Source of the DNA: a virus
DNA length: 64,000 nucleotides
Direction: 5' to 3' (one strand)
IMG/VR virus record: IMGVR_UViG_3300045988_074608
Of the stretch, positions 34,010 to 63,699 are shown piece after piece (positions within the stretch are counted from its first letter, which is position 1; each line of letters starts with the position of its first letter). The translations under genes were made by a program, and so were the position numbers. Below the pieces are notes generated by a model. The model was not told where the DNA came from, searched no databases, and worked only from the letters and a program-made list of their open reading frames with translations.

Positions 34010-34507
34010 TTAAAATAAATTAAAGTAATGTCTCACCCATCGTGGTCGATCAGCATCTTTAAGCTGAGCAACAGACATATCATAACAAGCAATAATATAA
34101 GCATTATTATCATTGTTTACCAATTTAGATATAATATCACCTTGATCTGAAGCGAATTTACACATCGTTACATACAATGCATATTTATTATAATAAGGAG
34201 CATAATCAACACACTTATTATTATGTTCTAATTCGTCGATCACAGAAAAATTAAAAGGTGCTCCAGAGCTACCATCGTAGTTTTTAAAATCTTTTAGAAT
34301 ATTCCTAGCTTCTTTTTCTGTTAAAAAGTTATTATATTTGTATAAACCTTCGGTGCAATTTAATAACTCTTCTATTACATTCGTATCACATTCCGATAAA
34401 TATGACATTACTGTTTTTACTATTGCGCACCTTATTTCAGAATTACTATGCTCATCAATAATAGATGAGATTCTTTCAATATGTGTTTTTATTTTAGACT
34501 TGTCCAT
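34010..34507 (-). CDS. Hypothetical protein (165 aa), no TAG
   Basis: Intact track ORF with ATG start and TAA stop. It is tightly packed between its neighbours. Confidence 0.6.
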   Translation of the reverse strand: MDKSKIKTHIERISSIIDEHSNSEIRCAIVKTVMSYLSECDTNVIEELLNCTEGLYKYNNFLTEKEARNILKDFKNYDGSSGAPFNFSVIDELEHNNKCVDYAPYYNKYALYVTMCKFASDQGDIISKLVNNDNNAYIIACYDMSVAQLKDADRPRWVRHYFNLF

Positions 34508-34979
34508 TGTTATTAGTATTTATAGTGTTTGAAAGATTTGAAATCATATTTTTAATATCCTCGACAGAAGATTCTAACTTAGAGAATCTTTGTTCTGTTT
34601 CTTTCTTCTCCTTAAACACTGGATTAAACTCGGACAATATTTTATTACATTTCTCTACTGTTGTTTTATGTAGATCAATTTGGTTAAGAACTTGTTCAGA
34701 TTGATCTTTGATAGATTCCACCTCACGTAATATAACTTCTCTATTTGGAGATATCACAAGATTTTCAGCATACCCTATCTCAGTATTATCTTTGAATGTG
34801 TATGTTTTTATATTATCCCCTACTTTAATAGTTATGTCGGTTACCATCTGGCTTGTAGTATTATGTAATATGTCAAAATGAGGTAACCCTTTGTTTACAA
34901 CTTTACCTTCTTTAACAGATACTTCTGCTTTATCAAAGATAAATATTGGATAATTAGGATTCAAATCTTTAAACAACAT
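34494..34979 (-). CDS. Hypothetical coiled-coil protein (161 aa), no TAG
   Basis: This is track ORF 34494..35003. I prefer the ATG at 34979 (MLFKDLNP) over the TTG at 35003, which would fall inside the upstream terminator. Confidence 0.55.
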   Translation of the reverse strand: MLFKDLNPNYPIFIFDKAEVSVKEGKVVNKGLPHFDILHNTTSQMVTDITIKVGDNIKTYTFKDNTEIGYAENLVISPNREVILREVESIKDQSEQVLNQIDLHKTTVEKCNKILSEFNPVFKEKKETEQRFSKLESSVEDIKNMISNLSNTINTNNNGQV

Positions 34980-40535: not shown

Positions 40536-41582
40536 TTAAGCTGTAATACCCTCTGCTGTAATATTACCAAGAGCTGTTTCGATTGCTTCAAGGTCGTTTG
40601 AACCAGTTACACCATAAATCTCAACACACTCCTTTGTACGACGAATCTGATCATCAGCAGCGTGATAATGATTTTCAAACATGATTGTAATACCATCGTA
40701 ATTCTTTGTGATATCTGTAACCATATCTGGTTTAATAACTGGCCATGTACCTTCACCACGGTTCAAAATACCCTGGTAACCCATAGCCTGTGCTTCACGA
40801 TCGCGTACAAGTTTAGCATCAGTTGTGCACCACTTACCTGGAATCTTTTTGATTGCAAGGCCTGTAATAGAATACTTGTTCTTAGAAGCAAATGCTGGAG
40901 CCGTAGGATCTGTATAATATGCATTTACACTGAAACGCACCTTATTAGCCCAGTTCAAGCTATCATTTACGTTATCGTCATCATAAGCCATAGCCTTGAG
41001 TGTCACAACACCAGCCGCAGCAGTAGCATAAACACGAGCTCTCTTATACTGAACGTTGATTTGCTTCTTAATAGCCTCTGCAATAGTGTCAGCAGTATCA
41101 CCTGGCTTAGTTATATACTCATAAGACTCCGTCCACTTGCGATAACGAGTAGGCATATCTTTAAATGTAATACGTATAACGATACGACGTTCCCCTTTAG
41201 CAAATTCGCTGATAACTGCAGAATCTACTTTACTAAAATCAATAGTAACGGTATCTTCACTATTATTAAAGTGTGTCCGTTTAACCATTGATATAATATC
41301 ATCACGCTTAATTGTATTTGACCACTTAATAACAGGAACATAAGTAACATCTCCATCCTTTGTACGATGCGCTACATTCTTGCTAGTTATAAATCCAATA
41401 CGGAACTTTTTAGTGTTTGTATTAACCGTATAAAGATCTGACTCTGCAACACCATCCATATTCATCATTATAAACTTACCAGCGTCAGTGCTAGGTGTAT
41501 TCTTATCTGTTGGAGCTGTAGGCTTTGCTGCACATACTCCTGCTCCAGTACCTACAAGTACTGTATTTACATATGTAATCAT
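40536..41582 (-). CDS. Abundant-looking structural protein (348 aa), GC-enriched, no TAG
   Basis: Intact track ORF with ATG start and TAA stop, followed by a terminator-like hairpin. No family recognised; the structural role is inferred from position and codon composition. Confidence 0.65.
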   Translation of the reverse strand: MITYVNTVLVGTGAGVCAAKPTAPTDKNTPSTDAGKFIMMNMDGVAESDLYTVNTNTKKFRIGFITSKNVAHRTKDGDVTYVPVIKWSNTIKRDDIISMVKRTHFNNSEDTVTIDFSKVDSAVISEFAKGERRIVIRITFKDMPTRYRKWTESYEYITKPGDTADTIAEAIKKQINVQYKRARVYATAAAGVVTLKAMAYDDDNVNDSLNWANKVRFSVNAYYTDPTAPAFASKNKYSITGLAIKKIPGKWCTTDAKLVRDREAQAMGYQGILNRGEGTWPVIKPDMVTDITKNYDGITIMFENHYHAADDQIRRTKECVEIYGVTGSNDLEAIETALGNITAEGITA

Positions 41583-43819: not shown

Positions 43820-44572
43820 TTATTTACTTTCTACTTGGTTTATAATCGAAAGTTTAAGGTCTTGATTTTTCTTTGCATCAAGATAAGCAATAGCATCTTG
43901 TTTAGAATCTGCAAACAACTCACTACCATAATAATAATGAGTTTTATCTTTGCGGATAACACCTTTTGCAATAGCACTCTCAAGCAAGAATTCTGTTTCC
44001 TTTGATTTATTGTTTACCCAAACGTCAAAGAACTTCTTAGGATTCTTATCAACAAGACCAAACAACGTAGATTCAACAAGCTCATTTGATAATGTATCTG
44101 ACTTAAGACCAAACAAACGCAAACATTTACGCATCTGATCCAATGACAGTTTGTCGAATTCTTTGATAGCATCTCTACGCATCTTATTAATCTTGTTCTG
44201 CTCAATAGCCTCTGCCTGCTTATTGATTAAGAGATAATCCTTACTAGCTGCAAGTTTATCCAAAGATGTAGCAACACGCTTATGACCTGTCAAGAACTTA
44301 ATAATCATCTCCTGTCTAGGATATGTATCATCAAGCAACAATGGTCTAGAACCAATCTTTACTACAAAGTTCTCCCAATAAGGACTGCTCTTAGCAAGAG
44401 TTCCTTCCGCAAGACCTAGAACTTTCTCATAATGTTTCTCATCTTCTGGGGTGAGACCCGTATATATCGACCCGGAACGAGTAAGGTAGGGTGCAATATA
44501 GTCAAAACATGACTTATATTTAATTAAACCCGCCCAGGGATTTTTCTTCATTATTTTTAATTCAACTACCAT
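43820..44572 (-). CDS. Head-module protein (250 aa), no TAG
   Basis: Intact track ORF directly downstream of the MCP, with a TAA stop. Confidence 0.65.
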   Translation of the reverse strand: MVVELKIMKKNPWAGLIKYKSCFDYIAPYLTRSGSIYTGLTPEDEKHYEKVLGLAEGTLAKSSPYWENFVVKIGSRPLLLDDTYPRQEMIIKFLTGHKRVATSLDKLAASKDYLLINKQAEAIEQNKINKMRRDAIKEFDKLSLDQMRKCLRLFGLKSDTLSNELVESTLFGLVDKNPKKFFDVWVNNKSKETEFLLESAIAKGVIRKDKTHYYYGSELFADSKQDAIAYLDAKKNQDLKLSIINQVESK

Positions 44573-44650: not shown

Positions 44651-46450
44651 TTAGGCTGCTACGTTATAAGCACCTTTATTCGTAATGTCTGTATCCTCAG
44701 CATCACAGTACAGAATACCACAAGACAGCGGATTACGAAGCATAATACCCTCCTCACCGAGGAAGTGAACCTGGTAACCATCACGGCTGTTAGAACGTAC
44801 TGTATTAATACTATTGCTATATCCAGCTGGAGTTACAGAACCTGCTGTACACCACTGTACAAACTCACGACCCTTACGACAAACCTTAACAACGTTTGCC
44901 TGACCATCACGCTGACCAAGATCAACAAACAAGAATGTGTATGACATCAATGGTTTACCTGTAACCGGATGCAACTGACGGAACATTTCCATATTATCAA
45001 ACAGAGCACAACGCTTAACTGTAAGCTCAATACCGTTAGTCATCTTATATGTAGTAAACTGACCACCGAGTGTCAACTCCTGACCAGAACCAGTGATAAA
45101 CTTAGTATCAGTAAGCTGGAATCCAGCTGCCTTCTCACGAAGTACACGGTCAAATTCTCTAATCATTTATGTTTAGTTCATATCGTTAATACAAACCGGT
45201 TTTTATTGACCAAATAAAAACCCTCATATTTTCATATGAGATCAGACTATATCTTCAACCTATAAAAAGGTTGTCCACCATTTCGATTTCACTTGAAACC
45301 TACTCCTTTCGGATAGTCGTTGAACGTTCTTAACTAAATAAGTTAAGCTTCGCTGCTGATTGCCTCCAACTTAATGGTAAGGTTTTCCAGCAATTAGATG
45401 GATTTTCAAGTAACATTACTGCTACAGGGAGCTATGTTGTTAACCCATTTCTCCTGTCAAAGCGATAAACTTACGCTCCTGTGTACCGAGAATATTATAA
45501 CACAGATCGAACAGATAATCCTCAAGCAGCTCAGCTGTCAAATGTGTATAATAACGTACATTAGCAGGACTAATCTGCTCAAACAAACCTGCAGAGATTG
45601 GCACAGGTCTTCCATTTTTACCTCTAAGAGCATATGTACCATCAGCATTACGGTTAGAACGAGAGAACAGAAGGAACTTCTCCTCACGACGTTTCCACTC
45701 ACGAAGAGCCAACCAATACTGATAATCAGACCACAAATAAGAAGTCTTACCTGTCTCAGGATCCTTCAATGCGATAGCAAGTACTGTAGAATAAGCATCA
45801 CCTGTAATATCGTAAGAAAGACGAAGAGTTGTAAGGTTATTACGCATCTTAAATGGAGTCTGATAGCTGATGATATCTGCCTCATCACTGTACTCCTCGT
45901 ATGCAGAACCAATACGGCTTACCTGACGACCAGGAAGAAGGAACTCACCAGGAATATATGCTCCTGCGAAACCATCTGCTACATAGCATTCATATACCCA
46001 TGTAGAACCATCCTGATAAGGTACACCATTTACACGTACCTGATAGTTTACATTATCGAAAGCAAGTACAGCACCAGGACCGAAAGCTTTTTCCTCAAGT
46101 CCAATGTAGATAGGAGCTCCATTCAAACCTGGAGTAACAGTATTCGCATTGTTAGAAGTAATCTCTGCACCATCAGCCTTAGCCCAACGAATATTTACAG
46201 CCTTCTCCTGGTCAACCATTACTGACCACTCGTACTCACGATTCTCAATAGTCATAGTCTTACCGAGACCACCAGTAATCATGTCGATAGCAGTAGATAC
46301 ACCATCATCCTTAGTACCAAATACCAAAGAAAGAAGACCACTAATCTCATGAGGTCTTGTAAGAAGTGCGTTTGAAATCATGTTCTCATCAACCAAATCA
46401 GAGAATTTACGACCTCTGTAAAGCTGAAGATTATTTAAAAGTGTATTCAT
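44651..46450 (-). CDS. Major capsid protein, two exons (46450..45443 and 45163..44651) joined across a group I intron; 506 aa, no TAG
   Basis: Track ORFs 45440..46450 and 44651..45166 are in the same frame and are separated by 279 nt of ribozyme-like sequence. The predicted junction is ...LTGEMG/IREFDRV... It is a GC-enriched gene placed after the scaffold-like gene, as in crAss-like head modules. Confidence 0.75.
45164..45442 (-). mobile_element. Group I intron (IA2, T4 td-like), ORF-less, 279 nt
   Basis: The canonical P, Q, R and S elements occur in order on the minus strand: AATTGCTGGAAAACC, CAATCAGCAGC, GTTCAACGACTATCC, GAAGATATAGTCTGATC. The 5' exon ends in GGU, followed by UAA. The intron ends in ...AACAUAAAUG. 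Several stretches (AACGACUAUCC...GGAGUAGG...CAAGUGA...UCGAAA...GACAAC...AGAUAUAGUCUG) match my recollection of the T4 td intron. Confidence 0.85.
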
Positions 46451-46478
46451 AAATTATTTATTATTTGATTAATTGTTA

Positions 46479-47621
46479 TTATAGCCACCTTGACGCAATG
46501 TCAGCTACTGAACGTTTCTTGTCATCTATATTAAAACTACTATGATTCTTAGTCTAATATCTTAACATTTTTCTAAGTTTTTCTGCAGCAGTCGTTTGAC
46601 CAGTGCGCTTGGCTTCTCCAATGAGGGCGTCGCCTTTCATAGTGAAGTACGCAGACTCTATGAGATTTTCTATCAAGTTTTTCTGGAAATCTCTTTGATA
46701 CTGAGTGATTCCTTCTGAATCAACTTTTGTAATGTAATCAAACAATGCTTTTCTATCTTGTTTTGGAATAGCGACACCTCTGATATTGTCTAGAGATGAA
46801 ATAGTATTGTTCAAATCTGTTACAAATTGTCTAGCTTGCTCTTGTTGTGCCATTTGCTGCTGTTGCTGAAGCTGTTGCTGTTGTTGCAACTATTCTTCTT
46901 GATATATTTTCAATCTTTCAACAGCGTCGTTAGCCTCATCTTCAAGCATATCAGCATCTTCATATCTTTCTATCTTCTTATTAATCTACTCATCGGAGTA
47001 ACCGGATAGTTTTAAATAATCACGAACTGCCATCTTTTGATTAGATTCATCCTCCATATCCATATTATCATATTCAATAGTTTGAGACATTCCATTATAG
47101 AAATCTTCAAACTTTCCACCATTCTTAACATATGCGTCAAGTTGTGCTATACGATCGTCTGCATATTGAGGTTTGGAATTCTCAGCAACCGTATCTTCGA
47201 TATAGTTGATAAGACCTTCCATTGAATCTGGTTTTTCATCGTCTGCTACATCCCATCCTAATTCTTCAGCGAACGCGTCAAAGAACAATCTAACATTCTG
47301 TGTTTCAAGCTGATCTGCCTCATTATCTGTTTGATCATCCTGTCCATCTGAAATATCATCAGGATTATTATTCAAATCATCCTGATTTGGAATAGGAGTA
47401 GTATCATTATTGTCTGGATCAATTACTTGATCATCGTCTGATCCACCAACGTTGTTGGGATCATTATTGTCGTCTAAGTCGTCAATATCATCATAGATTG
47501 GCGTATCTTGTATAGTTTGGTCATCATCCATGTTAGATACAGGATCTGTTACATCGTTATCATAACCAAGCTTACTTAAAGCATTATCAAATGTTGATAG
47601 ACTGTTTTTCTTTCTTGCCAT
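46479..47621 (-). CDS. Scaffold-like protein (380 aa): acidic N-terminus, poly-Gln coiled coil
   Basis: Track ORFs 46986..47621 and 46554..46889 share a frame, with TAG in between. The TAG at 46554 is read through to TAA at 46479-46481. It has D/N/E-rich tracts and QQQQQLQQQQQMAQQEQ. It lies immediately upstream of the MCP. Confidence 0.6.
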
Positions 47622-47664
47622 AATTATATATAATAATTAGTTAAATTAAATTAAAATTTAAATT

Positions 47665-47748
47665 GCTGCTCAATGTGCGAAATTTCTCGCAAAATTGGCA
47701 CGTTTGCGTAATGTTGAGCTATATTTTCCTTTGGGTGCGCTCAACACC
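47665..47748 (-). promoter_or_regulatory. GC-rich structured intergenic element with mutually exclusive helices
   Basis: On the plus strand the segments are GCTCAAT (47668), TGCGA (47676), TCGCAAA (47687), TTTGCG (47703), GTTGAGC (47713) and GCTCAAC (47739). TCGCAAA can pair with either TGCGA or TTTGCG. GTTGAGC can pair with either GCTCAAT or GCTCAAC. Confidence 0.45.
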
Positions 47749-50012
47749 TGTCTAGCAAACTCCTAGACACCCATGTTATGCTCATTAGCGGCTTCAGTAA
47801 ATTTACCTCTATTTGCCTTCTTTATATGTATATCTTTTCCAGAGTTGTGATTTTGTGATTGTTGTAATCCCAAATCTCTCCATTTATTAGGAATATGTAT
47901 ATCCGCACCTTTTACAAGATTACCTAATGTACCATATGGTTCTTGTGTCATATGACCATATATAGCCATGATTTGTTCGTTAGTCGCATCCGGGAACATC
48001 TGTCTTATTATAGACGCACCATACGGTCCATGACCATCTCCTGTCCATAGTTTACCTGTATCATGCATTAATGTTGGAAACAATGCTTCATCTGGATAAC
48101 CAAACTTTAATGCTCTTCGATAAGCATCTCTACTATGTAAAAATGTATTCCAGTCGGTTTTATGCCATTTCGTATTTTCTAATCTATGTTGAGGTGTATA
48201 CCCATTAGGTATGTTTTTCAAAGCTTCTCTGTATACTTCTTTCAACTTATCTACATTGATACTTTTATCTTTGTTTATAATATCTGAAATATTAAAATGA
48301 CGTCCTGTATACATTTGATAAGTTGGTTCGTTAAATTGCATACGTGGTTGTTTAGTATACTATTTACCTAAAAGTTGTATTTTCTAATTTAAATCAATAC
48401 GTTTATCTGGTAACACAACACCTTCATAACTATATCTTCCATTTGGAAGTTGTTCAAACCACGAAAGATTATCTGTTGGCATTTCTCCAGTTTTAAATCC
48501 TATTCGCTAACCGGCACGTAATTTGTTAATGGGCTTTGTTATATAAAAACTGCGGTCTATTCCGGTTGGTACTTCTACACCAACTCCACCTTCTAATACA
48601 CCTATGTGTCCTATCCCAGATGTAGACGTTCCTCCATCCCATAACGTACCGTACCCAGCCTATGTTCTATTACCATGAGAAGATCCTTGTTTTCTTTTAA
48701 GTTTAGTTATTTTTTCCTCCTAGTTTAATTTTTTATACCAATAACCATCTTTAGACCAAATTTTGTTTTCCATAGCATTGCGTCTCCATGCATCAGGAGT
48801 TCCGCTGACCAACGAATTTTTAGAATCTTCTGTTGTTATATTCATACCGTACCTTCTTAAAGATTGTATTTCAGGCGTTTCTGACCATCTATACCAGTTA
48901 TACGGAGAATTAAAATATTCTGGCCCAACTGTACCATCCCAAGCTTTTACATTTTTATTTAAGGTGTTAGACAATGCTTTATTGCGCAACCAATTTCCAA
49001 CTTTTGTATAACTAAAATCTTTAACAAAATCATTCACCAATTGTTTACCTGCCTATCCAACACCTTTAAACAAAGGATAACCTGCAGCTGTTTCTACAAT
49101 CATTTCTCCAACAGGATCTACTGGAGAAACTGGTATTATCTTCATTTGCCGATGTTCTTTTCCAGATCTATCTATCCAATTATAAAACTCGGATTCTGGT
49201 GTATTCTAACTGTATAATTGTTTTAACTGATCATCAGAGTATTTTGTCGTATATAACTTGCCCGAATCATCAATAAAATCCCATGTAGATTTATCATTTG
49301 GGAGTCGTTGTATATATGGAGTTACTTTAGTTGTCGCAGCGTTTATATTTGGACCTGCAAAATACTAATCACCATCTTGATAAATCATTTGCTATCCATC
49401 ATCAGTTCCTATATCAAAACAATCCTTACCTCTTTTGTATCTTTTAGGTTTTACGATAACTTGAGGTAACTATCCTTCGTATCTAGTACCATCGTCCATC
49501 CATAGCGGTTTGTTATCAAACGTTCTAAGTTGTACACCATTATCTTCACCATCTATTATATAATTAATACGATCATCCATTGATATAGGTGTTTCTTTAG
49601 GAGAAATATACTTATGATCACTTACCCAATGGCCACCTTTCAACCCTTTCGGATTAAATCTTGGATCTATTTTACCAGAATATATAGAAAGATCACTAAA
49701 TGTAGGATGATATACTGTTTTATAAGTATCATCAAAATGTGCTCTAGGATCGTCATTTAGAAAACGATACGCATTCTCTGGATTAGAATTATACCACCCT
49801 TCATAATCAAAAGTGTTATCTTCGTCAATTTTTAAATTTTTATATTTGGCTGCTTTTGTTTTCCAATCCTAATAAGACATATCCTTACCATCATCAAAAG
49901 ACTATAATATTCGTTTACCCTTTCTGCGTAAACCTCTTATCGTTTTCTTGCGCACATAGTCTTTCTTTTTCTACCATGTTCTCTTAGGCTTCTGTATAGT
50001 CATCATATCCAT
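47670..50012 (-). CDS. Large post-portal protein (up to 780 aa) with a C-terminal HD-domain-like motif
   Basis: I followed the frame codon by codon from the ATG at 50012 through track ORFs 48720..49040 and 47763..48341, finding TAG only. The C-terminal region reads LMHDTGKLWTGDGHGPYG...IYGHM (H...HD...H pattern). The TAG at 47763 may be the real stop; read-through adds 31 codons to TGA at 47670-47672. Confidence 0.55.
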
Positions 50013-53270: not shown

Positions 53271-56200
53271 TTAAAAATTAAATATTGACGAATCTTCTTC
53301 CTAAGGACCGTCGTCCCACCATTGACTACTAAACAATGGTTTTTCAAAGAGTTCGACTTGTTTATTCTGTTCTTTAGCACTAGATACTTTTACTTGATAT
53401 AATTCTTCTCTATAAATCATAACCATGCATAGTGCTATAACACGGTCTACATTACGAACCTAATCATCCATTATTAATTCTTCTATTAAAGGTTCGCTAA
53501 ATATTCTTTCTATATTTGGATGTCCTGGTTCATATTCTTCCATCATCCATTCTAGTATTAAACCTTCGCCATATGCTCTTATTTGTTTTGTCATATGACA
53601 ACCTTTTCTACGCTATACTGTAGAGTTTTTAAACAATTCACTAATTACTTTATCAGGCTAATCAGCTAATAAGTAATCGCAATGTTTATTTGTAAAATAT
53701 GGGTATATACCTTTACGTTCGTTCTCAAATAATAACCTAGCGTTATAAAATAATAACAACTTACGAACGTTTTCATAATACTCTTCTGCTGTATCTGGTC
53801 TACCAGAATATTCGGCTACTATTACATCTGTCCAAGCTTCTCCTGCTTGTACACGTTTAAATATAAATGTAGACCCTAATGAATTTGTAAAAGATTCATC
53901 ATGGTCATAAGGGTCACATCCTCCTATATATAATCCAAACGGAGGATCCTTTACTGGGTACTCCCATATAACAACTGATCCTGCAGGTTTCTAATCTTTC
54001 TTTAGTGGATAATTAGTAATATCTCCAGTTTTCTTTTCTATTGCTATAACTCCACCGTCACCATCCCATTGCAAATCAACTATGTGTTTCATACTCTATA
54101 ATTTTTTATTAGTACGAATTCTTGTAAGTTGATCCATTAATAGTTTGCGCGGAAATATGTTTTTACCAAGCTCTAATATAGCTTCTTGTGGTTTTATCGG
54201 ACGTTCTGATATAAATCTATCTATGGATTGCTAACTAGCACCACCATCTTTAATAATGTTACGTTGTTTTATAAGTTCCTCAATTGTTTTTTCACGAAGA
54301 CTGTTTCCATCTTCATCCATATAGATATATTTACCATCATCGTCAAACGATTCAAGATTACTCCATGCAGGTACGAAAAAACCACATTCTGTTTGTTCTG
54401 CATTATCATCCCATATATTTGGAAATGATAGAACATTATAAGCTTTTGGTTTATAAAATAATGCTTTCAAACCATCGAACGACGCACCTTCTGTTCCGCC
54501 TGTGTTATGTGTAACAATACCGTTGCATATATAGTTATGTTGTTCGTCTGCTGTAAGATTATATATATCTTGTTCACCAATATCTTCAATATTTACAATT
54601 TTTTCAGCATGTACCCCAAGTACGTATTTATGATATTGAGCAACATGTTCTTGTGTGTATAACATCATCAAATCTAATGCTGATTGTTTATATGTAACAG
54701 CACACGATATACATTTTGCGAAATTTCCAATACTTGTTATATCATTAATTGTCAATCTCCAGTGTCCTGGTCCATCTTTTATAACTTTACCATTAGAAAC
54801 GTGCTTTCGATATTTAGTTTTAATAAAGCGTATGCTACAATGAACACCGAAATGTATCAACACTTCCTCAATCTATCGTAATAATGGTTCCTAACACTAT
54901 GTTAATGTTATACGAGGTTTTCCGGATTTATCAATTTGTATATATCCGTCGGTGTCAAACAAACCACCTATTAATTCCGCTAAAGATTCTTGATCATATT
55001 GATGTATATTTACTGGTAATCGTTTCTTATCTTTTACCTGACCATAAATACCGAGTTCTCGTAATTTTGGACAAATTCCTTTTATGCGAGTTTCTTTATA
55101 AATTTTACCATCTTTAGTAATACGAACTGGTCTATCTAACGAAGTATTAAAATGTGTTTCTATGTATTCATTTATTTCGTTATCACAATTTGACAACCTT
55201 GGCGTTTTATCAAAACCATAACTACCATCGCCAATTAACCAACCAACAACTCTAGGTTCCCACATTTTTTTAGTTCCAAAGAACGGAATGTTGTCGATAA
55301 CGCCGACCTATTCACCAATTTTACATTTCGAAGCTTCATGCCACTTCCATTGTTTCATTGTTTGATTTTCTTTACGTTTTCCAGGAACTCTTTTTGTCAA
55401 ACCGGCATGTGACCATAAAATCGGGTGGTCCGTACTACATTCTAATATTCTTCCAGTGTTTGTGGTTATTCTAACACATGGTTTTTTAGCCGGTGGATTG
55501 AAATGTGATATATGTTGCTAAACAGCCTAATAAGTATCCCAACCTAAAATACCATCCTCTTTATGTAAATCTTCAATATTAACACAATTTCCAGAAGAAG
55601 TCCATACTTTTGTACCTTTACATACACATCCAAAGGATATCATCAATCCAAATGCAACACCATCATCCGTTTCTACAGCAGGTTGTTCAACACGCCAAGC
55701 ATCTAATAAACTTGGGAATTTACCACTTTCTTCCCACAATACTAATCTACCACGAGTACCACGAATACGTTCAGGATCGTTTTTCAATGTAATACCTGTA
55801 ATACTTGATAGATAACCCTATTCTGTCTATTTACCAAATTCGTCAGTAACTTTGTAACCAGATACTCGTTCCATTCTTGTAGATGTCAAACGTTGTTTTG
55901 CCCATGCTGTATTCTTATCTATAAAATCCATGATCTGCCATGCTTTTGTAAGCAATCCATCTCCGATTAAGAATTTTTGTTCTGATGCAACTGCAAAATT
56001 TTTAGAACCTGGTATGAGTTCGTAATTACGAACTAACATTGAAGCACCTTTAAAGCTATATCCACGTTGTCTACATTTTAACACTGCCATGTGTTTACCG
56101 ACTGTTTCTGCTTCTTCTACAGCATTAAAATAATAATAATCATAATCCCAAAATTTAGGGAAGTCAAATATACGCTCTCTTCTTTTTCTTGTATCACCAT

Positions 56201-56453
56201 TTCTATCAACATATTCTGTTTCTATTAATCGCATAATTGGACAATAGTTTAAATAAAAATAATGATAACCTGTAATCTAATCTCCATCTGGAGCAGTATA
56301 CCCATTTAAACATCTATCTGTTTCTCGCTCCCAATATTTAACATAATCTGTAGTACCTCTGGGAGCTAAGGTATAACATTTATGCACTTTAAAGAATTCT
56401 GCAGCTTCACAGAATTTTTTTGTGTTTTTTATATGCTAATTAAAATCAACCAT
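53271..56453 (-). CDS. terL: Terminase large subunit precursor (1,060 aa; about 685 aa after intein removal)
   Basis: The ATG at 56453 overlaps the upstream TAA (TAATG). Track ORFs 55827..56234, 55527..55787, 54897..55265 and 54231..54863 share the frame. I translated from 54231 to 53271 by hand and found TAG only, ending at TAA 53271-53273. The nuclease motif is GLYIGGCDPYDHDES. Confidence 0.85.
54504..55628 (-). mobile_element. Intein (375 aa) with a LAGLIDADG homing endonuclease domain, inserted in TerL
   Basis: The N-terminal splice junction is ISFG/CVCKGTKVWTSSG, a Cys-1 block A-like sequence. The C-terminal junction is NGIVTHN/TGGTEG, an HN followed by Thr+1. The two LAGLIDADG motifs are VVGWLIGDGSYG and ELIGGLFDTDGYI. 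Its length is divisible by 3. It contains six in-frame TAG codons (55527, 55518, 55308, 54897, 54891, 54873). Confidence 0.85.
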
Positions 56454-56650
56454 TACAAATCCAATTTATTTTCGTTGGAAATTATTATTCTGTCTCCGTC
56501 ATCATTTGTAAACAAATAATGATACATTTCGTCATGCAATACAACATTTTCTTCTCCCACTTTTGTTATATTTCCAACTGTTTTCCAATCTGCAGAAAGT
56601 GACAATTCTTTATATTTATTGTCATTTTTTCCTTTTATACTTACATTCAT
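56453..56650 (-). CDS. Small protein upstream of TerL (65 aa)
   Basis: Intact track ORF whose TAA overlaps the TerL ATG. Confidence 0.5.
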   Translation of the reverse strand: MNVSIKGKNDNKYKELSLSADWKTVGNITKVGEENVVLHDEMYHYLFTNDDGDRIIISNENKLDL

Positions 56651-56652
56651 AA

Positions 56653-57171
56653 TTATTTAGGACTTTCATAAAGACCTATAATACCACCACCTTTTACACG
56701 ACCAGTTTCAGCTTGTTCAGCCTTCGCTTGTTTCATAGCGAGATCTAAGGATTTAATAATACCGCTTATGTCTTTCAACAGTTTCGATACTTTAGTAGCA
56801 GTGTCTATATCAAGGTCTTCTTGTGAATAATCGTTCATTACATTCATTATCGCCTCAGCAGCATGTTTTGAAGACGTTAACAATCGTGTCATAGGTGTTT
56901 CTTGAAACTCGTTGAAACGTTTAGCTAATTCTTTAATTTCAGCTGTTGGTTCATAATGTTCATCTTTAAAAACATCTTTTGCAACTCTCCAAGTTCTTTC
57001 TTTTTCTGGATAAGCCTCATAAGGTGTATTCCATTTATAACGCCATATTATAAATTCTATTTCTTTTAAAGCCTATGCTTTATCTTTAGCCTTATTATAA
57101 TAATCTTTAAATGGAGGTATTGCAAGTTCGTCTGTTTTTAATATAATTTTATTTCCTTGTATATCAAACAT
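56653..57171 (-). CDS. Hypothetical protein (172 aa); first gene downstream of the tRNA that contains an in-frame TAG
   Basis: The ATG at 57171 is in frame with track ORF 56653..56892. There is a single TAG at 57073-57075. The stop is TAA at 56653-56655. Confidence 0.55.
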
Positions 57172-57246
57172 ATTTGTATATATGTATAAACACGATAAGG
57201 GGGTACCCAAGTGGATACTCCCTTATCAATGCAGTTGTATAATTAA

Positions 57247-57780
57247 TTACGCATCCGCCTCAGCTACAGACGACTCTGTAACCGCCGCTTGAGTCTTTAC
57301 TTCGTCGTCACGAGTAGGTTGCTCTGCGCTAATATTGTCATTTTTTGTACCTGTGGAACCATAACCTTTATCACCACGCTCTGTTTCACTTAATTCAGAT
57401 GCTTCTACTACTGTAATATCCGGAATTGGGACAATTACCAATTGGCAAAATCTCTCACCTTCTTGATACACTGCAGGGATAACATCAGTTGTATTTCTGA
57501 ATATAGCCTTGATTTCTCCACGATAATTGCTGTCAATAACACCTACACAATTCGATTGTATCAAAGATGTTTTAAACACACTACTACGTGGAAACAAAAG
57601 ACCTACATGTCCTTCTGGAATCTCTACAGCAAGTCCTGTATGATACTCCAAAAGAAGTTGATTACAACTATTACGTACAGGTATGATTTCTGTACATGTT
57701 AAATCTAAACCGGCGTCGCCTTTGTAATTTTTGATTGGCATAATAGCCTTATCGTTCAATCTTTTAAATTTCAGTTCCAT
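57247..57780 (-). CDS. dut: dUTP diphosphatase (trimeric dUTPase) with a C-terminal acidic extension
   Basis: All five dUTPase motifs are present: GDAGLDL, PRSS, GVIDSNYRGE, RFCQLVI and RGDKGYGSTG. I prefer the ATG at 57780 (MELKFKRL) over the track start at 57846. Confidence 0.9.
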   Translation of the reverse strand: MELKFKRLNDKAIMPIKNYKGDAGLDLTCTEIIPVRNSCNQLLLEYHTGLAVEIPEGHVGLLFPRSSVFKTSLIQSNCVGVIDSNYRGEIKAIFRNTTDVIPAVYQEGERFCQLVIVPIPDITVVEASELSETERGDKGYGSTGTKNDNISAEQPTRDDEVKTQAAVTESSVAEADA

Positions 57781-57920
57781 ATATGCTTTTTTTATTATTT
57801 TTAATAGCGCAGTATTTACGAATCGAACGTAAATCTCTGTATTCATTCCATACAGCGAAATTCCATTATTCCAATACCGCTGGTAGCCCCACTAGGATTC
57901 GAACCCAGACTAAAAGGGTT

Positions 57921-58907
57921 CAGTAAACTCGACTGTTGCATCCAATCCTAAGATCAGTCTTCTCGTTCAGTCTGTCACGCTGCTTTCGCTTGCGCCTCGT
58001 CAACATTGTCTTCCGAGTCAATTAGAGAAGATTCTAATAACGGATTATTTATTATCCCGCTATCATCCAATATTTTCCAATGACTGTTCAACCAAAAATT
58101 ATCTTTGTTGTACATGATAGTTCTAGTACATGTTTTCACACGTTTTGTTTTAACTTCATTATTCTCTATTAAAGCTTTTGCAGCTTCTACAAGAGAACCA
58201 TATCTTGCTAACTCATTCCAATTTTCATCATACCTTATTATATATTTTTGATTGGAATGTTTTTGACCAGATTCGTTAACTATTTTTGTAACAACACATC
58301 TACGTATTCCAAGAATTGATGATACTTTTTTAACATTTTTAACTTCGTTATATTTTTTTTCAACTATGTTTCTTATTTCTTCCGAAATATCATATTTAGA
58401 ATTATTAAGTTGTTGATTTCTACTACCATATGTAGAAGTCTGACTATGACAATTAGGACATAGAAATCTAAGATTCTCTAATCTATTGTCATTATTTATT
58501 CCGTTTATATGATCAAGTTCTAAACTTAACGTTTTCCCTTGCCATTCGGTACATCCACATATTGCACATTTATATGGTATTAAGTTGTTTTTAATTATGT
58601 ATCTTCTCAATACTGTACGTTGATGTTTACAATTTTCTTTTAGTATATCTTCTTTCTTTACATTGTTTAGCTTGGTAGTTTTTATAATAGCAGATCTCCC
58701 TTTGAATATAGAATGGTCTAAATTCAGATCATCCATTCTTCTTTTTACTTGAGAATATCCCCAAGAGTTTCCTTTAACTGTATAACCAAGTTTAAACAAC
58801 ACTTCAGATATTGTTGAACTTTTCTTGAGTAACTCAACAAACTGTTCGTCTGAGAGTTTATATATTTTATTTTCCATTATTATATATTCAATTATTCATT
58901 GGACAAA
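57921..58907 (-). mobile_element. Intron in the tRNA anticodon loop (between nt 35 and 36), probably group I, carrying an HNH homing endonuclease ORF
   Basis: The 5' exon ends in U and the intron ends in G, and this is the only junction that gives a 7-nt loop. There are only 30 nt upstream and 54 nt downstream of the ORF. The GC-rich 3' end contains weak P/Q/R/S-like strings (AGCGGGAT, AATCCGTT, GACAGACTGAACG, ACAGTCGAG) and a GC-GAAA-GC tetraloop hairpin. I could not find a convincing P1/IGS pairing by hand. Confidence 0.5.
57975..58877 (-). CDS. HNH homing endonuclease (300 aa), no TAG
   Basis: Intact track ORF. The HNH motif is CAICGCTEWQGKTLSLELDHINGINNDNRLENLRFLCPNCH. A helix-turn-helix-like segment (VKKVSSILGIRRCVVTKIV) follows. 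It lies entirely inside the tRNA intron. Confidence 0.85.
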   Translation of the reverse strand: MENKIYKLSDEQFVELLKKSSTISEVLFKLGYTVKGNSWGYSQVKRRMDDLNLDHSIFKGRSAIIKTTKLNNVKKEDILKENCKHQRTVLRRYIIKNNLIPYKCAICGCTEWQGKTLSLELDHINGINNDNRLENLRFLCPNCHSQTSTYGSRNQQLNNSKYDISEEIRNIVEKKYNEVKNVKKVSSILGIRRCVVTKIVNESGQKHSNQKYIIRYDENWNELARYGSLVEAAKALIENNEVKTKRVKTCTRTIMYNKDNFWLNSHWKILDDSGIINNPLLESSLIDSEDNVDEAQAKAA

Positions 58908-59009
58908 AGAGCCTTCTGTGCTAACCGTTACACCATAGGGCAATATGAGGCATTTTAACGTCGGAGCCTCTCGACGGTTTATACAATGAAAGTTTTCAAT
59001 AGCTTATTG

Positions 59010-59058
59010 TAGTAATTCGGGAATCGAACCCGAGATTTGATATCCTCCAAGATTACTT
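59010..59058 (-). other. tRNA-like minihelix (acceptor stem plus T arm only), a possible tRNA remnant
   Basis: The minus strand reads AAGTAAT-CTTGGAGGATATCAAATC-TCGGG-TTCGATT-CCCGA-ATTACTA. It has a canonical T arm and a 6-7 bp acceptor-like stem, but no D arm or normal anticodon arm. Confidence 0.35.
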
Positions 59059-59065
59059 GTTATTG

Positions 59066-59395
59066 TTACTTCTTACGAGTAACCCAATTCCAAAATCTCT
59101 TAAAGATATTTGGTTTCTTTTTGCAAATACATTCTTCACAAGGATCCTCAAGTTGTATTTTATTATTCTCAAGGTCTGCCATGTAATCCGCCATAGCACT
59201 ATTGATTTCATCTGCAACTTGTGCAAAATATGCATTTACTGCATAATCACGTATAATATTCATTTCAACATCGCGCATCGCATTAAACTTAGCGAGAACT
59301 ACACACTTATACGGATCTGTAACTTGTGTAATTTTTGTAAGATCTATAACGATCTTCTTACTTTTATCGTTTTTCTTCATCTTCTTCGTATTCAT
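59066..59395 (-). CDS. Hypothetical protein (109 aa), no TAG
   Basis: Intact track ORF with ATG start and TAA stop. Confidence 0.55.
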   Translation of the reverse strand: MNTKKMKKNDKSKKIVIDLTKITQVTDPYKCVVLAKFNAMRDVEMNIIRDYAVNAYFAQVADEINSAMADYMADLENNKIQLEDPCEECICKKKPNIFKRFWNWVTRKK

Positions 59396-59398
59396 AAT

Positions 59399-59539
59399 TC
59401 AATTATGCGAACAATATTTTAAAGTTTTATTGTTTTTATATCGACGTTTTAGTTTAAATTTAAATAATTCGTTTAATAGAATATCATAATTGAAATCTAA
59501 ATCTTTCATTTTATCAACTATATCCTTAAATTGAAACAT
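59399..59539 (-). CDS. Small hypothetical protein (46 aa)
   Basis: Hand-found ORF with ATG at 59539 and TGA at 59399-59401. It fills the gap between neighbouring genes. Confidence 0.3.
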   Translation of the reverse strand: MFQFKDIVDKMKDLDFNYDILLNELFKFKLKRRYKNNKTLKYCSHN

Positions 59540-59603
59540 TATTATTTGATGTACAATCTATTCGTCTTCATTTAAATTTAAACTTACTTGTTTGCATACA
59601 GTA

Positions 59604-60002
59604 TCAATTGTTGACTACGGCTACAACATCATAAATGCATACGATTTGTGTATCTTTTACTAAATCGAAATACTGTGCAGCTCTATTTGGGTAGGCTATC
59701 GTATCTCCGACTTTGATATCTGTATCTTTATACTGATGTGGTACTTTTAACACTATTCCTTCTCTATAATCACAATCAACTTCTCTAGTCTCAGTTTTTG
59801 TACCTTCGAAATCAATTGCCTCAACACCGTCTTTATCTTTCTTCGGTTTCTTATCGACCGGAATAGGAACGACGAACTCTTTCTTTACTTTCTTGAGAGG
59901 TAGAGGTTTTACGAGAAATTTAGTAAGTGTTTCGTATTTAATGTGATCACTCACACTTTCAGCAACTTTTGTCTGATCTGTAACTTTAACTGTATTCATC
60001 AC
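59604..60002 (-). CDS. Hypothetical protein (132 aa), no TAG
   Basis: Intact track ORF whose ATG forms an ATGA overlap with the upstream gene. The C-terminal beta-rich segment (REGIVLKVP...IKVGDTIAY...YDVVAVV) is faintly GroES-like, but I am not confident of that. Confidence 0.55.
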   Translation of the reverse strand: MMNTVKVTDQTKVAESVSDHIKYETLTKFLVKPLPLKKVKKEFVVPIPVDKKPKKDKDGVEAIDFEGTKTETREVDCDYREGIVLKVPHQYKDTDIKVGDTIAYPNRAAQYFDLVKDTQIVCIYDVVAVVNN

Positions 60003-60397
60003 TTCTTAAGAGATCTAAGGTAAGAAACTGTTTTAATAAGATTTCGAAGAACTGTCTCTTTCTCAATCTTTACACAAGCTGGAAGATTTTTCATATCCTC
60101 ATCAAGATTATCAAGATCGGCATGATAAGTCTCCAACATTGAATCCATTGTATCAAATACATTACAAAACTTATCAACTGGCTCAGAAAGATAACCATCT
60201 TCAATTAAAGCTTTTGCAAAATCTGGTGATATTGAATACACTGTTGTAGCTTTACTTGTAATGTCATTATTCTTACATACTGAGTTATATTCAGTTGTGT
60301 GTGTATTTGTATACATCTTTCCGTCTTCGGAGAGCTCAAACGTTTCGCCGGGCTCCATCCAACCATACGGCTTAATAACTGTTAATGTTTTATTCAT
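59999..60397 (-). CDS. Hypothetical protein (132 aa), first gene of the minus-strand transcription unit
   Basis: Intact track ORF with ATG at 60397, next to the divergent intergenic region. Confidence 0.55.
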   Translation of the reverse strand: MNKTLTVIKPYGWMEPGETFELSEDGKMYTNTHTTEYNSVCKNNDITSKATTVYSISPDFAKALIEDGYLSEPVDKFCNVFDTMDSMLETYHADLDNLDEDMKNLPACVKIEKETVLRNLIKTVSYLRSLKK

Positions 60398-60713
60398 ATT
60401 TTTTAATTTTATATTTTAACAAAATCCTCACTACTCACATATCATTTTCGTGGTATCTGCATCTGTAACGGAATTTTTTATGCAAAAGGTTGCAACAACA
60501 TAAAATTTTTTATAAAAATGCAACTTTTTTATGTTTTTTACGTTATATGTATGTAAAAAGAAGGAGAAGAAGGGGGACTATAGGGGGTTATTAAGGTAGT
60601 TTAAGCTGAGCTATATAAGTAATCTAGTAATATTGTAATCTATGTAATATTATAACCCTATAGTACTATATAACCTTTTATTGTGTAGAGTAATATATAA
60701 ATATATACAACAT
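60398..60713. promoter_or_regulatory. Divergent intergenic control region (316 nt)
   Basis: It lies between oppositely oriented first genes. It contains repeated TGCAAC and TTTTTTATG strings, the inverted repeat ACTATAGGGGGTTAT (60577-60591) / ATAACCCTATAGT (60652-60664), and a tandem direct repeat. Confidence 0.5.
60619..60651 (+). repeat. Tandem direct repeat, 16 + 17 nt
   Basis: GTAATCTAGTAATATT (60619-60634) is followed immediately by GTAATCTATGTAATATT (60635-60651). The pair is enclosed by the inverted repeat noted above. Confidence 0.7.
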
Positions 60714-62521: not shown

Positions 62522-62743
62522 ATGCAACCGAAAGAGAAAATAAACGTTATAGATCAGGAGACTACAACATCTCTGATTACACGGGACAAAGTGGTGAGAT
62601 ATGATTTCCAAGGTTGGCCAGAATACCAAATAAGGGTTGTAGATCTCTTAAAAGTATTAAACATCCCAATAGATAATATATCTAAAGATATATTAGAAAA
62701 ACACATAGAAATACTCGAAGATGATGGGATGGGCTATGCATAG
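62522..62743 (+). CDS. Hypothetical protein (73 aa; 93 aa if the terminal TAG is read through)
   Basis: Intact track ORF ending at TAG 62741-62743. Read-through runs 19 more codons to TGA at 62801-62803, which forms an ATGA overlap with the thyX ATG at 62800. Confidence 0.5.
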   Translation: MQPKEKINVIDQETTTSLITRDKVVRYDFQGWPEYQIRVVDLLKVLNIPIDNISKDILEKHIEILEDDGMGYA

Positions 62744-62799
62744 AAGACGTATAAAGCTGTAGATTGCGGAGTAGATAATGATAAAATAAATATTTGGAT

Positions 62800-63699
62800 A
62801 TGAGACTTATAAAATCTAATGTAGAACAAATAAAACAGAAAAAAGGTTTGTCCGGTATTAAAAAACAGATAGAAATAGCTGGTAGAACATGTTATAAATC
62901 TGAAGATAAAATAACAAATAAAAGCTGTGAAGAGTTTGTACAACGTATGATAAATTCTGGTCATACTGCAATGTTAGAGCATGGAACAGTATATTTAACT
63001 GTACCTGCAGAAGATGCAAATAATGGTTATAAATATTCATTTAATAAGTATTCTAAAATTAATTTCGATCCTACAGGTAAAGATACCAACATATACGTAA
63101 CAACAAACTATAGAGTTATAACTGAAAATAAGTGGGAAGATGACCTTAAATACCTTACAGAACCTACAAAAAACCACGAAAAGCGTCTGACTTTTAGGTT
63201 TATATGTGACCGTGGTGTTTCGCATGAATTAGTAAGACATAGAGTATTATCATTCGCACAAGAATCTACAAGATATTGTAATTATGTCAAAGATAAATTT
63301 AATGGTGAGATAACTTATGTAATCCCAACATGGTTAGAAGATAAATTACCAGAAGGTCAATATGTAGAATGGGATGGTGATTGGTGTGATATTGAAAAAT
63401 TTACAATACAACATCATATTGATAACAGTATTGAAAATGAATTTGTACAAACATTACAAAATTTAGAGTATTCATACATGTATTTCATAGAAAGCGGATG
63501 GAAACCACAGCAAGCACGTAGTGTTCTCCCAAATGCATTAAAAACAGAGATAATTGTAACAGGATTTATATCAGATTGGCTTAGATTTATAGCTATGAGA
63601 ACAGCTCCAAATGCTCATCCTGATATACAAAAATTAGCAAATATGCTATTGACAGATAAAGAGATTAAAAAGTATATAATAACAGACAAAAAGAAGTAA
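62800..63699 (+). CDS. thyX: FAD-dependent thymidylate synthase ThyX
   Basis: The ThyX signature is SHELVRHRVLSFAQESTRY (RHRxxS), and the N-terminal region has TAMLEHG. I prefer the ATG at 62800 over the TTG at 62794. Confidence 0.85.
   Translation: MRLIKSNVEQIKQKKGLSGIKKQIEIAGRTCYKSEDKITNKSCEEFVQRMINSGHTAMLEHGTVYLTVPAEDANNGYKYSFNKYSKINFDPTGKDTNIYVTTNYRVITENKWEDDLKYLTEPTKNHEKRLTFRFICDRGVSHELVRHRVLSFAQESTRYCNYVKDKFNGEITYVIPTWLEDKLPEGQYVEWDGDWCDIEKFTIQHHIDNSIENEFVQTLQNLEYSYMYFIESGWKPQQARSVLPNALKTEIIVTGFISDWLRFIAMRTAPNAHPDIQKLANMLLTDKEIKKYIITDKKK

Follow-up and report, generated by a model that had tools for sequence, protein, structure and literature searches.

An amber suppressor tRNA stands at the boundary between TAG-poor and TAG-rich genes of a recoded crAss-like gut phage, and its gene is split within the anticodon by a predicted group I-like intron that harbors an HNH homing-endonuclease ORF. 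As the overall explanation of this arrangement, we regard as rather likely a combination of the junction layout and its TAG gradient with suppressor supply from the upstream side and a selfish intron. The sequence analysed, termed the window, is the whole 64-kb stretch of a genome of about 95-100 kb, and the labels "early" and "late" are assigned from gene content and position only.

The recoded junction and its TAG gradient

The window belongs to a phage in which TAG is recoded to glutamine (Crassvirales, Suoliviridae-like). At the DNA level it matches Suoliviridae/Oafivirinae genomes best, sharing with them the gene order dut, TerL, portal and capsid, and its in-frame TAGs inside conserved co-linear proteins align with Q or ordinary sense residues in the homologues (EFqETP versus EFQETP; VCqHV versus VCQHV). 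The features of code-15 (TAG=Gln) crAss-like phages are thus present, including sense alignments of TAG, Crassvirales synteny, a tRNA(CUA) and recoding biased toward late genes. The region under study is the divergent junction of this genome together with the first part of a long leftward operon, i.e., the head of the late-gene operon. The minus-strand order is four small genes, tRNA remnants, tRNA(CUA), dut, a terminator-like hairpin, and then the packaging, structural and virion-RNAP genes. The protein-coding and neighboring features are as follows.

62522..62803, plus strand: replication-side gene
59999..60397, minus strand: first leader gene, DUF7399 (Pfam PF24132, E=2e-31), no TAG
59604..59999, minus strand: second leader gene, 131 aa, no TAG (limit 60002 in the first-pass annotation); relatives keep an ORF of about 135 aa here
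59399..59632, minus strand: small conserved leader gene, about 70 aa, from alignment with eight relatives
59066..59395, minus strand: leader gene, 109 aa, no TAG; relatives keep an ORF of 104-117 aa
59010..59056, minus strand: tRNA remnant, acceptor stem and T-arm only, from sequence reading and a partial tmRNA/T-arm match
57807..57880, minus strand: odd tRNA-like element, called Ile(aat) by ARAGORN, with G32 G33 in the anticodon loop
57247..57780, minus strand: dUTPase gene dut, 177 aa (Pfam PF00692, phrog_135), maximal ORF to 57846, no TAG
57194..57227, minus strand: strong terminator-like hairpin, then GUGUUUAU, between dut and the first late gene
56653..57171, minus strand: first late-module gene, 172 aa, with co-linear 172-aa homologues in the relatives L017, L005 and cr130_1
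53271..56453, minus strand: large terminase gene (TerL) with a LAGLIDADG intein at 54504..55628 (Pfam Intein_splicing, LAGLIDADG_3)

The leader ORFs, the HNH ORF and dut had been described as containing no in-frame TAG, which is exact for the six ORFs as drawn and fails for one of them upon extension. The 46-aa ORF 59399..59539 represents the C-terminal part only of the small leader gene, and it was cut short because TAG had been taken for a stop. The 25 residues preceding its ATG are co-linear with the N-terminus of a TAG-free homologue in L005 (E=2e-6), and this N-terminal half, which lies upstream of the tRNA, holds an in-frame TAG at 59558-59560, with further TAGs at 59615-17 and 59621-23 should translation begin at the ATG at 59632/59629. 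The same TAGs occur in the relative L064, sense TAGs are found in the gene in many relatives, and those of other lineages align with CAA/CAG Gln codons. Since this gene carries TAG, the leader block is TAG-poor rather than TAG-free, and the supposition that no TAG-containing gene precedes the tRNA within its unit fails, both in the window and in the tight gene string of many relatives. The remaining ORFs (59999..60397, 59604..59999/60002, whose start overlaps the stop of the first, 59066..59395, HNH and dut) keep their limits when TAG is read as sense and have no in-frame TAG; dut is free of TAG in every relative, and the HNH ORF has 0 TAG among 146 Gln-type codons over 13 distinct copies. Out-of-frame TAGs are plentiful in these leader-side ORFs, for instance 9+8 in HNH and 7+4 in dut, and there is therefore no general TAG depletion in them.

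TAG use was measured as the TAG share of Gln-type codons (TAG+CAA+CAG). In the window this share is 0.29 in the late genes, which hold 281 TAGs in 18,780 codons, compared with 0.10 in the leader and 0.03 on the plus strand. The leader ORFs as first drawn have 0/24 against the late value (Fisher p=4e-4), while the corrected gene models have 3/29 (p=0.03). In the complete relative genome cr130_1 the replication module has a share of 0.07, the leader one of 0.05 and the late module one of 0.28. When 67 distinct related loci are pooled, the share is 0.11 in the same-strand 3 kb upstream of tRNA(CUA) and 0.31 at distances of more than 1 kb downstream of it. The sharp rise just downstream of the suppressor tRNA accordingly recurs in cr130_1 and the 67 loci, where tRNA(CUA) is located at the TAG-poor/TAG-rich boundary with or without the intron. 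Gln-coding TAG is strongly depleted, though present, in the replication-side genes and the leader, and abundant in the late module. Leakiness of the code boundary is seen in the TAG of the conserved leader gene and also in the plus-strand gene 62522..62803, which, if its in-frame TAG at 62741-62743 is read through, ends in an ATGA overlap with the next gene; the homologue of this gene in L017 is an uninterrupted ORF of 93 aa that has Gly in place of the TAG codon and a conserved C-terminus.

Downstream, the first TAG (57073-57075) does lie in the gene next after dut, as had been stated, and it is the only one in 56653..57171; in the alignment of this gene with its homologues, the TAG of the cr130_1 copy aligns with Q. 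TerL, whose homologue is annotated as TerL in cr130_1, carries 17 TAGs in total, and the contrast drawn earlier between the two endonucleases is exact in its counts, with 0 TAG in 300 codons for HNH and 6 in 375 for the intein. The claim that TAG is frequent from there on is true of the late module at large, which is TAG-rich, and not of six late genes, capsid exons included, that have no TAG and are the GC-richer, CAG-preferring ones. Because of these six genes, TAG density also tracks another factor, probably expression level. TAG positions vary between close relatives, where they interchange with CAA/CAG.

The true start of dut is probably the ATG at 57780, as judged from relatives (MELK...), which would render the tRNA-like element 57807..57880 intergenic. 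This element sits in a 77-nt insertion absent from L064, and it was not detected by the Rfam tRNA model; in the complete genome PV686213.1, the position of the remnant 59010..59056 is occupied by an intact tRNA-Met. Beyond dut, the hairpin-bearing 96-nt stretch 57165..57260 has an MFE of -30.2 kcal/mol (z=-3.8), and relatives possess, at the same position, a hairpin of different sequence with TGTTT. The hairpin of the window is followed by UGUUU, its tail GUGUUUAU is U-poor, and a consensus terminator scan makes no call there. The hairpin fits a tRNA placed in a separate upstream transcription unit.

The split suppressor tRNA and its intron

The elements of the split gene are listed below.

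58908..58942, minus strand: suppressor tRNA 5' exon, ending ...CUCU, through U35 of the CUA anticodon
57921..58907, minus strand: group I-like intervening sequence, 987 nt, the exact stretch absent from L064
57975..58877, minus strand: HNH homing-endonuclease ORF, 300 aa (Pfam HNH; phrog_10822, E=6e-46)
57931..58063, minus strand: structured RNA core, hand-drawn structure of 34 pairs, overlapping the 3' end of the HNH ORF
58031-58025 with 57964-57958, minus strand: core helix P3 of the hand-drawn structure
57972-57968 with 57935-57931, minus strand: core helix P7 of the hand-drawn structure
within 57931..58063, minus strand: a P2-like hairpin, a 4-bp P4-like helix, a P6-like hairpin with a GAAA loop, and P8
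57881..57920, minus strand: suppressor tRNA 3' exon, A36 onward, with encoded CCA

The split tRNA-CUA recognized in the first-pass annotation is real. Once joined, its exons adopt a tRNA fold with a CUA anticodon, receive the ARAGORN call tRNA(cta) and match the uninterrupted L064 tRNA at every position, while default ARAGORN on the window missed the tRNA and found it only once the 987-nt insert was removed. The D-arm and T-arm are near-identical to those of the phage tRNA-Gln(TTG) of cr130_1, the amber suppressor is tRNA-Gln-derived, and its anticodon stem shows a compensatory change relative to MT836720.1. With the intron inserted in its gene between U35 and A36, a working suppressor would require RNA splicing.

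The insert is predicted to be a mobile, HNH-carrying intron of group I-like type, and 15 homologous copies of it were found. In the hand-drawn model of the core, 99.3% of cells are paired versus 36-48% with the partners slid, and five pairs are compensatory. P7, at whose edge the HNH stop codon is located, and the J6-7/J7-3 junction motifs resemble the Rfam group I consensus, while the Rfam model RF00028 gave no match to the tRNA intron at E<=10. For P1 or a guide sequence, a search by eye and regular expression only found no conserved complement to GGCUCU. A U before the intron and a G as its last base are seen in the window, L017, L005 and L006/8/14; in ten copies, namely nine L001-type loci and L013, the last base is A, not G.

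L064 is 95-98% identical to the window and lacks exactly these 987 nt, and its layout and TAG positions are the same despite the absence of the intron, which is thus an optional mobile element and not a built-in gate. In IMG/VR, 53 contigs bear intronless alleles and 11-14 bear split ones, so that about 80% of the related loci are intronless. The intron is best taken as a putative selfish add-on and not as part of the control logic.

Possible origins of the layout

In the explanation preferred here, genes translated before the suppressor has built up could not tolerate TAG, while later-translated genes could, in agreement with the published model; location of the tRNA in the upstream unit would supply the suppressor before the demand, and a mobile HNH group I-like intron may have invaded the suppressor, making splicing necessary for a working tRNA.

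The gradient might instead be a passive by-product without gating function, in which TAG drifts in from CAA/CAG wherever read-through suffices, and its scarcity in the leader, replication and capsid genes is due to purifying selection, which acts on genes that are early or expressed at very high levels. This is an appreciable possibility, and it is not really exclusive of the preferred explanation. The graded, leaky gradient, the GC-richer, CAG-preferring nature of TAG-free late genes such as the capsid exons, and the unconserved TAG positions that swap with CAA/CAG among close relatives are all in its favor, but it leaves unexplained the consistent place of the tRNA gene at the boundary and the published TAG enrichment in lysis genes.

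It is unlikely that an endonuclease insertion has left the split tRNA as a dead gene, with suppression coming from another tRNA in the unseen ~35 kb or in the host. The failure of Rfam to recognize the insert as group I, the P1 that was not found, the many relatives' introns ending in A instead of G, and the degenerate suppressor 3' exons of L005 and L006 would agree with this idea. However, the exons in the window are intact and near-identical to the uninterrupted allele, the conservation of the RNA core includes compensatory changes, and the complete genome PV686213.1 contains the split gene, no second tRNA(CUA) and yet TAG-rich late genes.

Quite unlikely, in our estimation, is the stricter proposal of a TAG-free, standard-code leader in which production and splicing of the split suppressor serve as a built-in timer for downstream translation. 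The 0/24 of the ORFs as drawn versus 0.29 downstream, the TAG-free HNH copies (0/146 over 13) and dut genes of all relatives, and the need to remove 987 nt for a functional tRNA speak for it. Against it stand the conserved TAG-bearing gene that precedes the tRNA within the same string of genes and the intronless twin L064 with its shared layout and TAGs among related loci that are mostly intronless, and splicing is accordingly not upheld as an integral gate. Moreover, the tRNA acts in trans, so DNA order alone gates nothing, and the splicing of group I introns is normally rapid and unregulated, which counts against a splicing timer.

Chance, by which a lack of TAG in short, glutamine-poor leader genes would mean little, is extremely unlikely: the window-only test with corrected models is weak (3/29 versus 0.29, p=0.03) and single ORFs of 46-132 aa would often have no TAG anyway, but the depletion recurs in 67 distinct loci and a complete relative genome, is upheld at the family level by pooled counts that refute chance, and coexists with abundant out-of-frame TAGs in the same leader genes.

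Comparison with known systems and implications

Group I introns in the anticodon loop of bacterial tRNAs are known from cyanobacterial tRNA-Leu(UAA), tRNA-fMet (endonuclease I-Ssp6803I) and Azoarcus tRNA-Ile. The phage intron resembles them in its anticodon-loop site, a 5' exon ending in U, the terminal G in the window, a compact predicted core that includes a P3/P7 pseudoknot and the P7 ACAGACU...AGUCG, and presence/absence polymorphism among close relatives. It differs in that the interrupted gene is a phage amber suppressor with insertion between positions 35 and 36, that a 300-aa HNH ORF takes up most of its length, overlapping P2-P6, and that it has no Rfam match or identified P1 and many copies ending in A.

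Like code-15 crAss-like phages, the window represents a low-GC Crassvirales genome with its own suppressor tRNA(CUA), in which TAG is concentrated in structural, packaging and lysis genes while replication genes are essentially in standard code; as in the Delta group of these phages, there is a TerL intein and a group I intron in a capsid gene. Unlike in those phages, the suppressor is interrupted within the anticodon by an HNH intron. The tRNA introns of Lak megaphages (Devoto et al., 10.1101/356790) are likewise presence/absence-polymorphic inserts in tRNA genes of TAG-recoded gut phages, but they are short, ORF-less, of unknown type and located in Thr/Phe/Gly/Tyr tRNAs, not in a suppressor. 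Agate phages (Borges 2021, 10.1101/2021.08.26.457843) also carry a homing endonuclease within a self-splicing intron of a stop-recoded phage, self-splicing being predicted here; the recoded codon is enriched in the Agate endonuclease ORF, and this was proposed to make the enzyme appear later, while the HNH ORF avoids TAG (0/146).

The general idea of gating is not new and is a published hypothesis, since a late-gene TAG bias and gating by the suppressor were proposed for recoded crAss-like phages (Yutin 2021, PMC7886860; Borges 2021, 10.1101/2021.08.26.457843; Peters 2022, PMC9523058). No statement on a tRNA at the TAG-poor/TAG-rich boundary was found in these three papers. They report suppressors to be undetectable in about 60% of TAG-recoded phages and do not offer a split gene as the explanation. 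An HNH intron inside a suppressor anticodon appears to be previously unreported, and it hides the suppressor tRNA from gene finders, the GenBank annotation of PV686213.1 having missed it as well. The odds seem to us evenly balanced that, in about one-fifth of the suppressor-family loci, the only suppressor is split at U35|A36 and its mobile HNH group I-like intron must self-splice, with a terminal A in some alleles, before TAG-rich late translation, which would explain part of the missing-suppressor problem. If true, the split suppressor ties a selfish element to a genetic-code switch.

Recoding of the phage and its split suppressor tRNA

The window has a GC content of ~0.30; minus-strand genes occupy positions 1 to about 60397, and plus-strand genes take over from 60714. 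Among public sequences it lies closest to crAss-like phages of the Suoliviridae/Oafivirinae, namely Bohxovirus PV686213.1, Dulem virus 42, cr130_1 and cr272_1, with which it shares the gene order dut, small gene, TerL, portal and capsid. Long ORFs are restored once TAG is read as sense, as in 2560..20394 (minus strand; 5,944 aa, 96 in-frame TAG), and co-linear homologues display Gln or ordinary residues opposite the TAG codons in alignments. Synteny, restored ORFs and aligned residues together identify the phage as TAG-to-Gln recoded, like those reported by Yutin et al. 2021 (PMC7886860) and Borges et al. 2021 (10.1101/2021.08.26.457843). The counterpart of the giant ORF in the complete relative genome cr130_1 measures 5,801 aa.

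Default ARAGORN returned no suppressor from the window, only an odd tRNA-like element at 57807..57880. When 58942..58908 is joined to 57920..57881, the product is a canonical tRNA of 75 nt that has anticodon CUA and encodes its CCA; its expected ligated exon junction with allele-specific flanks is exemplified by CACAGAAGGCTCTAACCCTTTTAG. Uninterrupted homologues occupy the same genomic place in MT836720.1, Dulem virus 42 and cr130_1, with a compensatory change in the anticodon stem, and the D-arm and T-arm hardly differ from those of the cr130_1 tRNA-Gln(TTG), which supports Gln identity. The decisive sequence evidence for the predicted split suppressor is the uninterrupted allele of the relative L064, which is 95-98% identical to window 56000..60700 and lacks exactly the 987 nt of 57921..58907. 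With introns allowed, ARAGORN proposed a tRNA-Ser(tga) that places the 987-nt intron 2 nt away; this was rejected on account of the short variable loop of the tRNA, shifted boundaries that break the U...G rule and intronless alleles that read CTCTAAC.

Several other tRNA-like remains were encountered in this region. The element at 57807..57880 (minus strand), called Ile(aat) by ARAGORN, has a non-canonical anticodon loop (G32 G33) and no match to the Rfam tRNA model; it lies within a 77-nt insertion directly after the CCA of the suppressor, which is absent from near-identical L064. At 59010..59056 (minus strand) a remnant retains only acceptor stem and T-arm, where PV686213.1 has an intact tRNA-Met. 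In two related loci (L005 and L006) the 3' exon of the split tRNA keeps the anticodon-stem complement and the canonical GGTTCGAATCC T-arm is missing; these copies may be decaying tRNA genes.

The intron of the window, preceded by U and ending in G, carries an HNH endonuclease ORF; its last ~135 nt, which overlap the ORF end, are highly conserved in 15 copies. A hand-drawn core consists of hairpins resembling P2 and P6, the latter with a GAAA loop, a short helix resembling P4, and the helices P3 (CUUCUC/GAGAAG), P7 (GACUG/CAGUC, with ACA before it) and P8. Over 13 distinct sequences its pairing holds in 99.3% of cells vs 36-48% with slid partners, with compensatory changes in five pairs. Around P7, the segments ACAGACUGAACG and CAGUCG are close to the group I consensus of Rfam, and they also match the Tetrahymena intron. 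On this modelled core the intron is called group I-like, and we infer that it is self-splicing. Ten related copies (L001, L004, L007, L009-L012, L013, L015 and L016) end in A, which runs against the expectation of G for group I introns, and their P7 G-binding motif is unchanged. The search for a P1 or internal guide sequence turned up nothing but GGGGAT, which lies within the ORF and is not conserved. Rfam, scanned at permissive thresholds over the tRNA region, matched neither a group I intron nor a tRNA or self-cleaving ribozyme. The only element recognised by Rfam is an intron in a capsid gene:

45223..45452, minus strand, group I intron (Rfam RF00028, 108 bits), flanking ORFs 45440..46450 and 44651..45166

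Distribution of TAG between leader and late genes

The first-pass annotation had described a TAG-free leader block around the split tRNA, followed by recoded genes. Downstream of dut this description largely stands: the first TAG (57073-57075) falls in 56653..57171, which encodes a conserved 172-aa protein, and the LAGLIDADG intein (54504..55628, 375 aa) within TerL (53271..56453) does carry 6 TAG. Between the first late gene and TerL (56453..56650, minus strand) the window carries an insertion of 200 nt, holding a 65-aa ORF, that L064 lacks. TAG is indeed frequent in the late genes (281 in 18,780 codons, 29% of the Gln-type codons TAG, CAA and CAG), but six of them contain none. Among the six are both exons flanking the group I intron, probably of the major capsid gene, which, unlike most late genes, are GC-richer (0.41-0.43), favour CAG over CAA and have 0 TAG; further TAG-less genes of the module are 34010..34979, 40536..41582 and 43820..44572 (all minus strand). 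The equivalents in cr130_1 (45307..46374 and 48593..49345) are likewise TAG-free, so that avoidance of the recoded codon is a consistent trait of some late genes.

In the leader, 59999..60397 (DUF7399), 59604..59999, 59066..59395, the HNH ORF (57975..58877) and dut have 0 in-frame TAG, and out-of-frame TAG is frequent in these ORFs. The remaining ORF, 59399..59539, is not a whole TAG-free gene; it forms the C-terminal portion of a conserved gene of ~70 aa, which in all relatives follows the second leader ORF and precedes the next, often with ATGA-type overlaps. The residues before the ATG first chosen, STIDTVCKQVSLNLNEDE[TAG]IVHQII, are co-linear with the N-terminus of TAG-free homologues, and these 25 residues by themselves match one of them with E=2e-6. 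This N-terminal homology argues that TAG 59558-59560 belongs to a real gene upstream of the tRNA, an arrangement that the first-pass annotation had named as contradicting its gating idea; TAGs 59615-17 and 59621-23 possibly belong to the same gene. That the gene is a nonsense-mutated pseudogene in the window was rejected, as its TAGs are shared by 95-98% identical L064, and in other lineages 1-4 TAGs occur elsewhere, opposite Q of the window (VCRqIG vs VCKQVS, MHqFqF vs MFQF).

With the ORFs as first drawn, TAG accounts for 0/24 Gln-type codons of the leader (p=4e-4 vs late genes), and with corrected gene models for 3/29 (p=0.03), so the leader block is TAG-poor rather than TAG-free. Calling ORFs with TAG as a stop truncates genes and thereby creates artificial "TAG-free" blocks. 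Horizontal acquisition as the cause of the TAG lack is plausible for the mobile HNH ORFs (0 TAG in 146 Gln-type codons); for dut, which keeps its syntenic place and lacks TAG in all relatives, it is unlikely. Near 59405 the window is without about 388 nt (a ~125-aa leader ORF) present in L064 and most relatives.

In the plus-strand genes, TAG accounts for 1/39 Gln-type codons (p=7e-5 vs late genes). The single codon, at 62741-62743, lies in the replication-side gene 62522..62803, whose read-through end produces an ATGA overlap with the next gene and whose homologue in the related locus L017 is a continuous 93-aa ORF.

The code boundary in relatives and the gating model

Pattern scans of IMG/VR revealed the intronless tRNA in 53 contigs and the split tRNA in 11-14. 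Across 67 distinct loci the TAG/Gln-type ratio was ~0.11 in same-strand genes <=3 kb upstream of the tRNA vs ~0.31 >1 kb downstream, and in complete cr130_1 it was 0.07 for replication, 0.05 for leader and 0.28 for late genes; therefore the tRNA consistently marks a TAG-poor to TAG-rich boundary, whether the intron is present or absent. cr130_1 replaced PV686213.1, the intended complete-genome comparator, because both TAA and TAG interrupt the late genes of the latter in frame.

A strong hairpin followed by UGUUU at 57194..57227, between dut and the first late gene, has equivalents of different sequence in relatives, and suggests that leader and tRNA belong to a transcription unit of their own, upstream of the late genes. 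A sigma-70 promoter scan was uninformative (55 sites vs 45.5 expected) and is unsuited to promoters of the Bacteroidota type.

In the published model, TAG would have to be avoided by genes translated ahead of suppressor accumulation, but not by late genes; the TAG gradient fits this model and may reflect either an adaptive gate or a passive constraint. The layout is already known: it repeats what has been published on recoded crAss-like phages (Yutin et al. 2021; Borges et al. 2021; Peters 2022, PMC9523058) and so adds little. Gating by splicing, as first proposed, is not supported, because the intron is optional in otherwise near-identical genomes and the tRNA acts in trans. Under correct gene models the early-to-late boundary is leaky, which strict gating models must accommodate, and near-identical phages with and without the intron provide a natural pair for testing suppressor supply as a limit on late gene expression.

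Split suppressors and phage annotation

No description of a suppressor tRNA interrupted by an intron with a homing endonuclease was found in the literature; the tRNA introns of Lak phages differ in being short, ORF-less and located in other tRNAs. Recoded phages without a detectable suppressor have been noted repeatedly (PMC7886860; 10.1101/2021.08.26.457843). A homing-endonuclease intron in the anticodon makes the suppressor invisible to standard tRNA finders, and split suppressors would account for some of these phages, such as PV686213.1, whose GenBank record uses code 11, with late genes shattered and the suppressor not annotated, and in which no other tRNA(CUA) was found.

The late genes of PV686213.1 (loci L018/L019), including TerL and the portal gene 45581..48055 (4 TAA, 12 TAG), contain in-frame TAA besides TAG. 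Six of its TAA codons are TAG in the 94%-identical locus L012. The in-frame TAA reflects either systematic sequencing error or TAA read-through, and the IMG/VR relatives are without it. Recognising split suppressors would improve code assignment and the annotation of gut phages.
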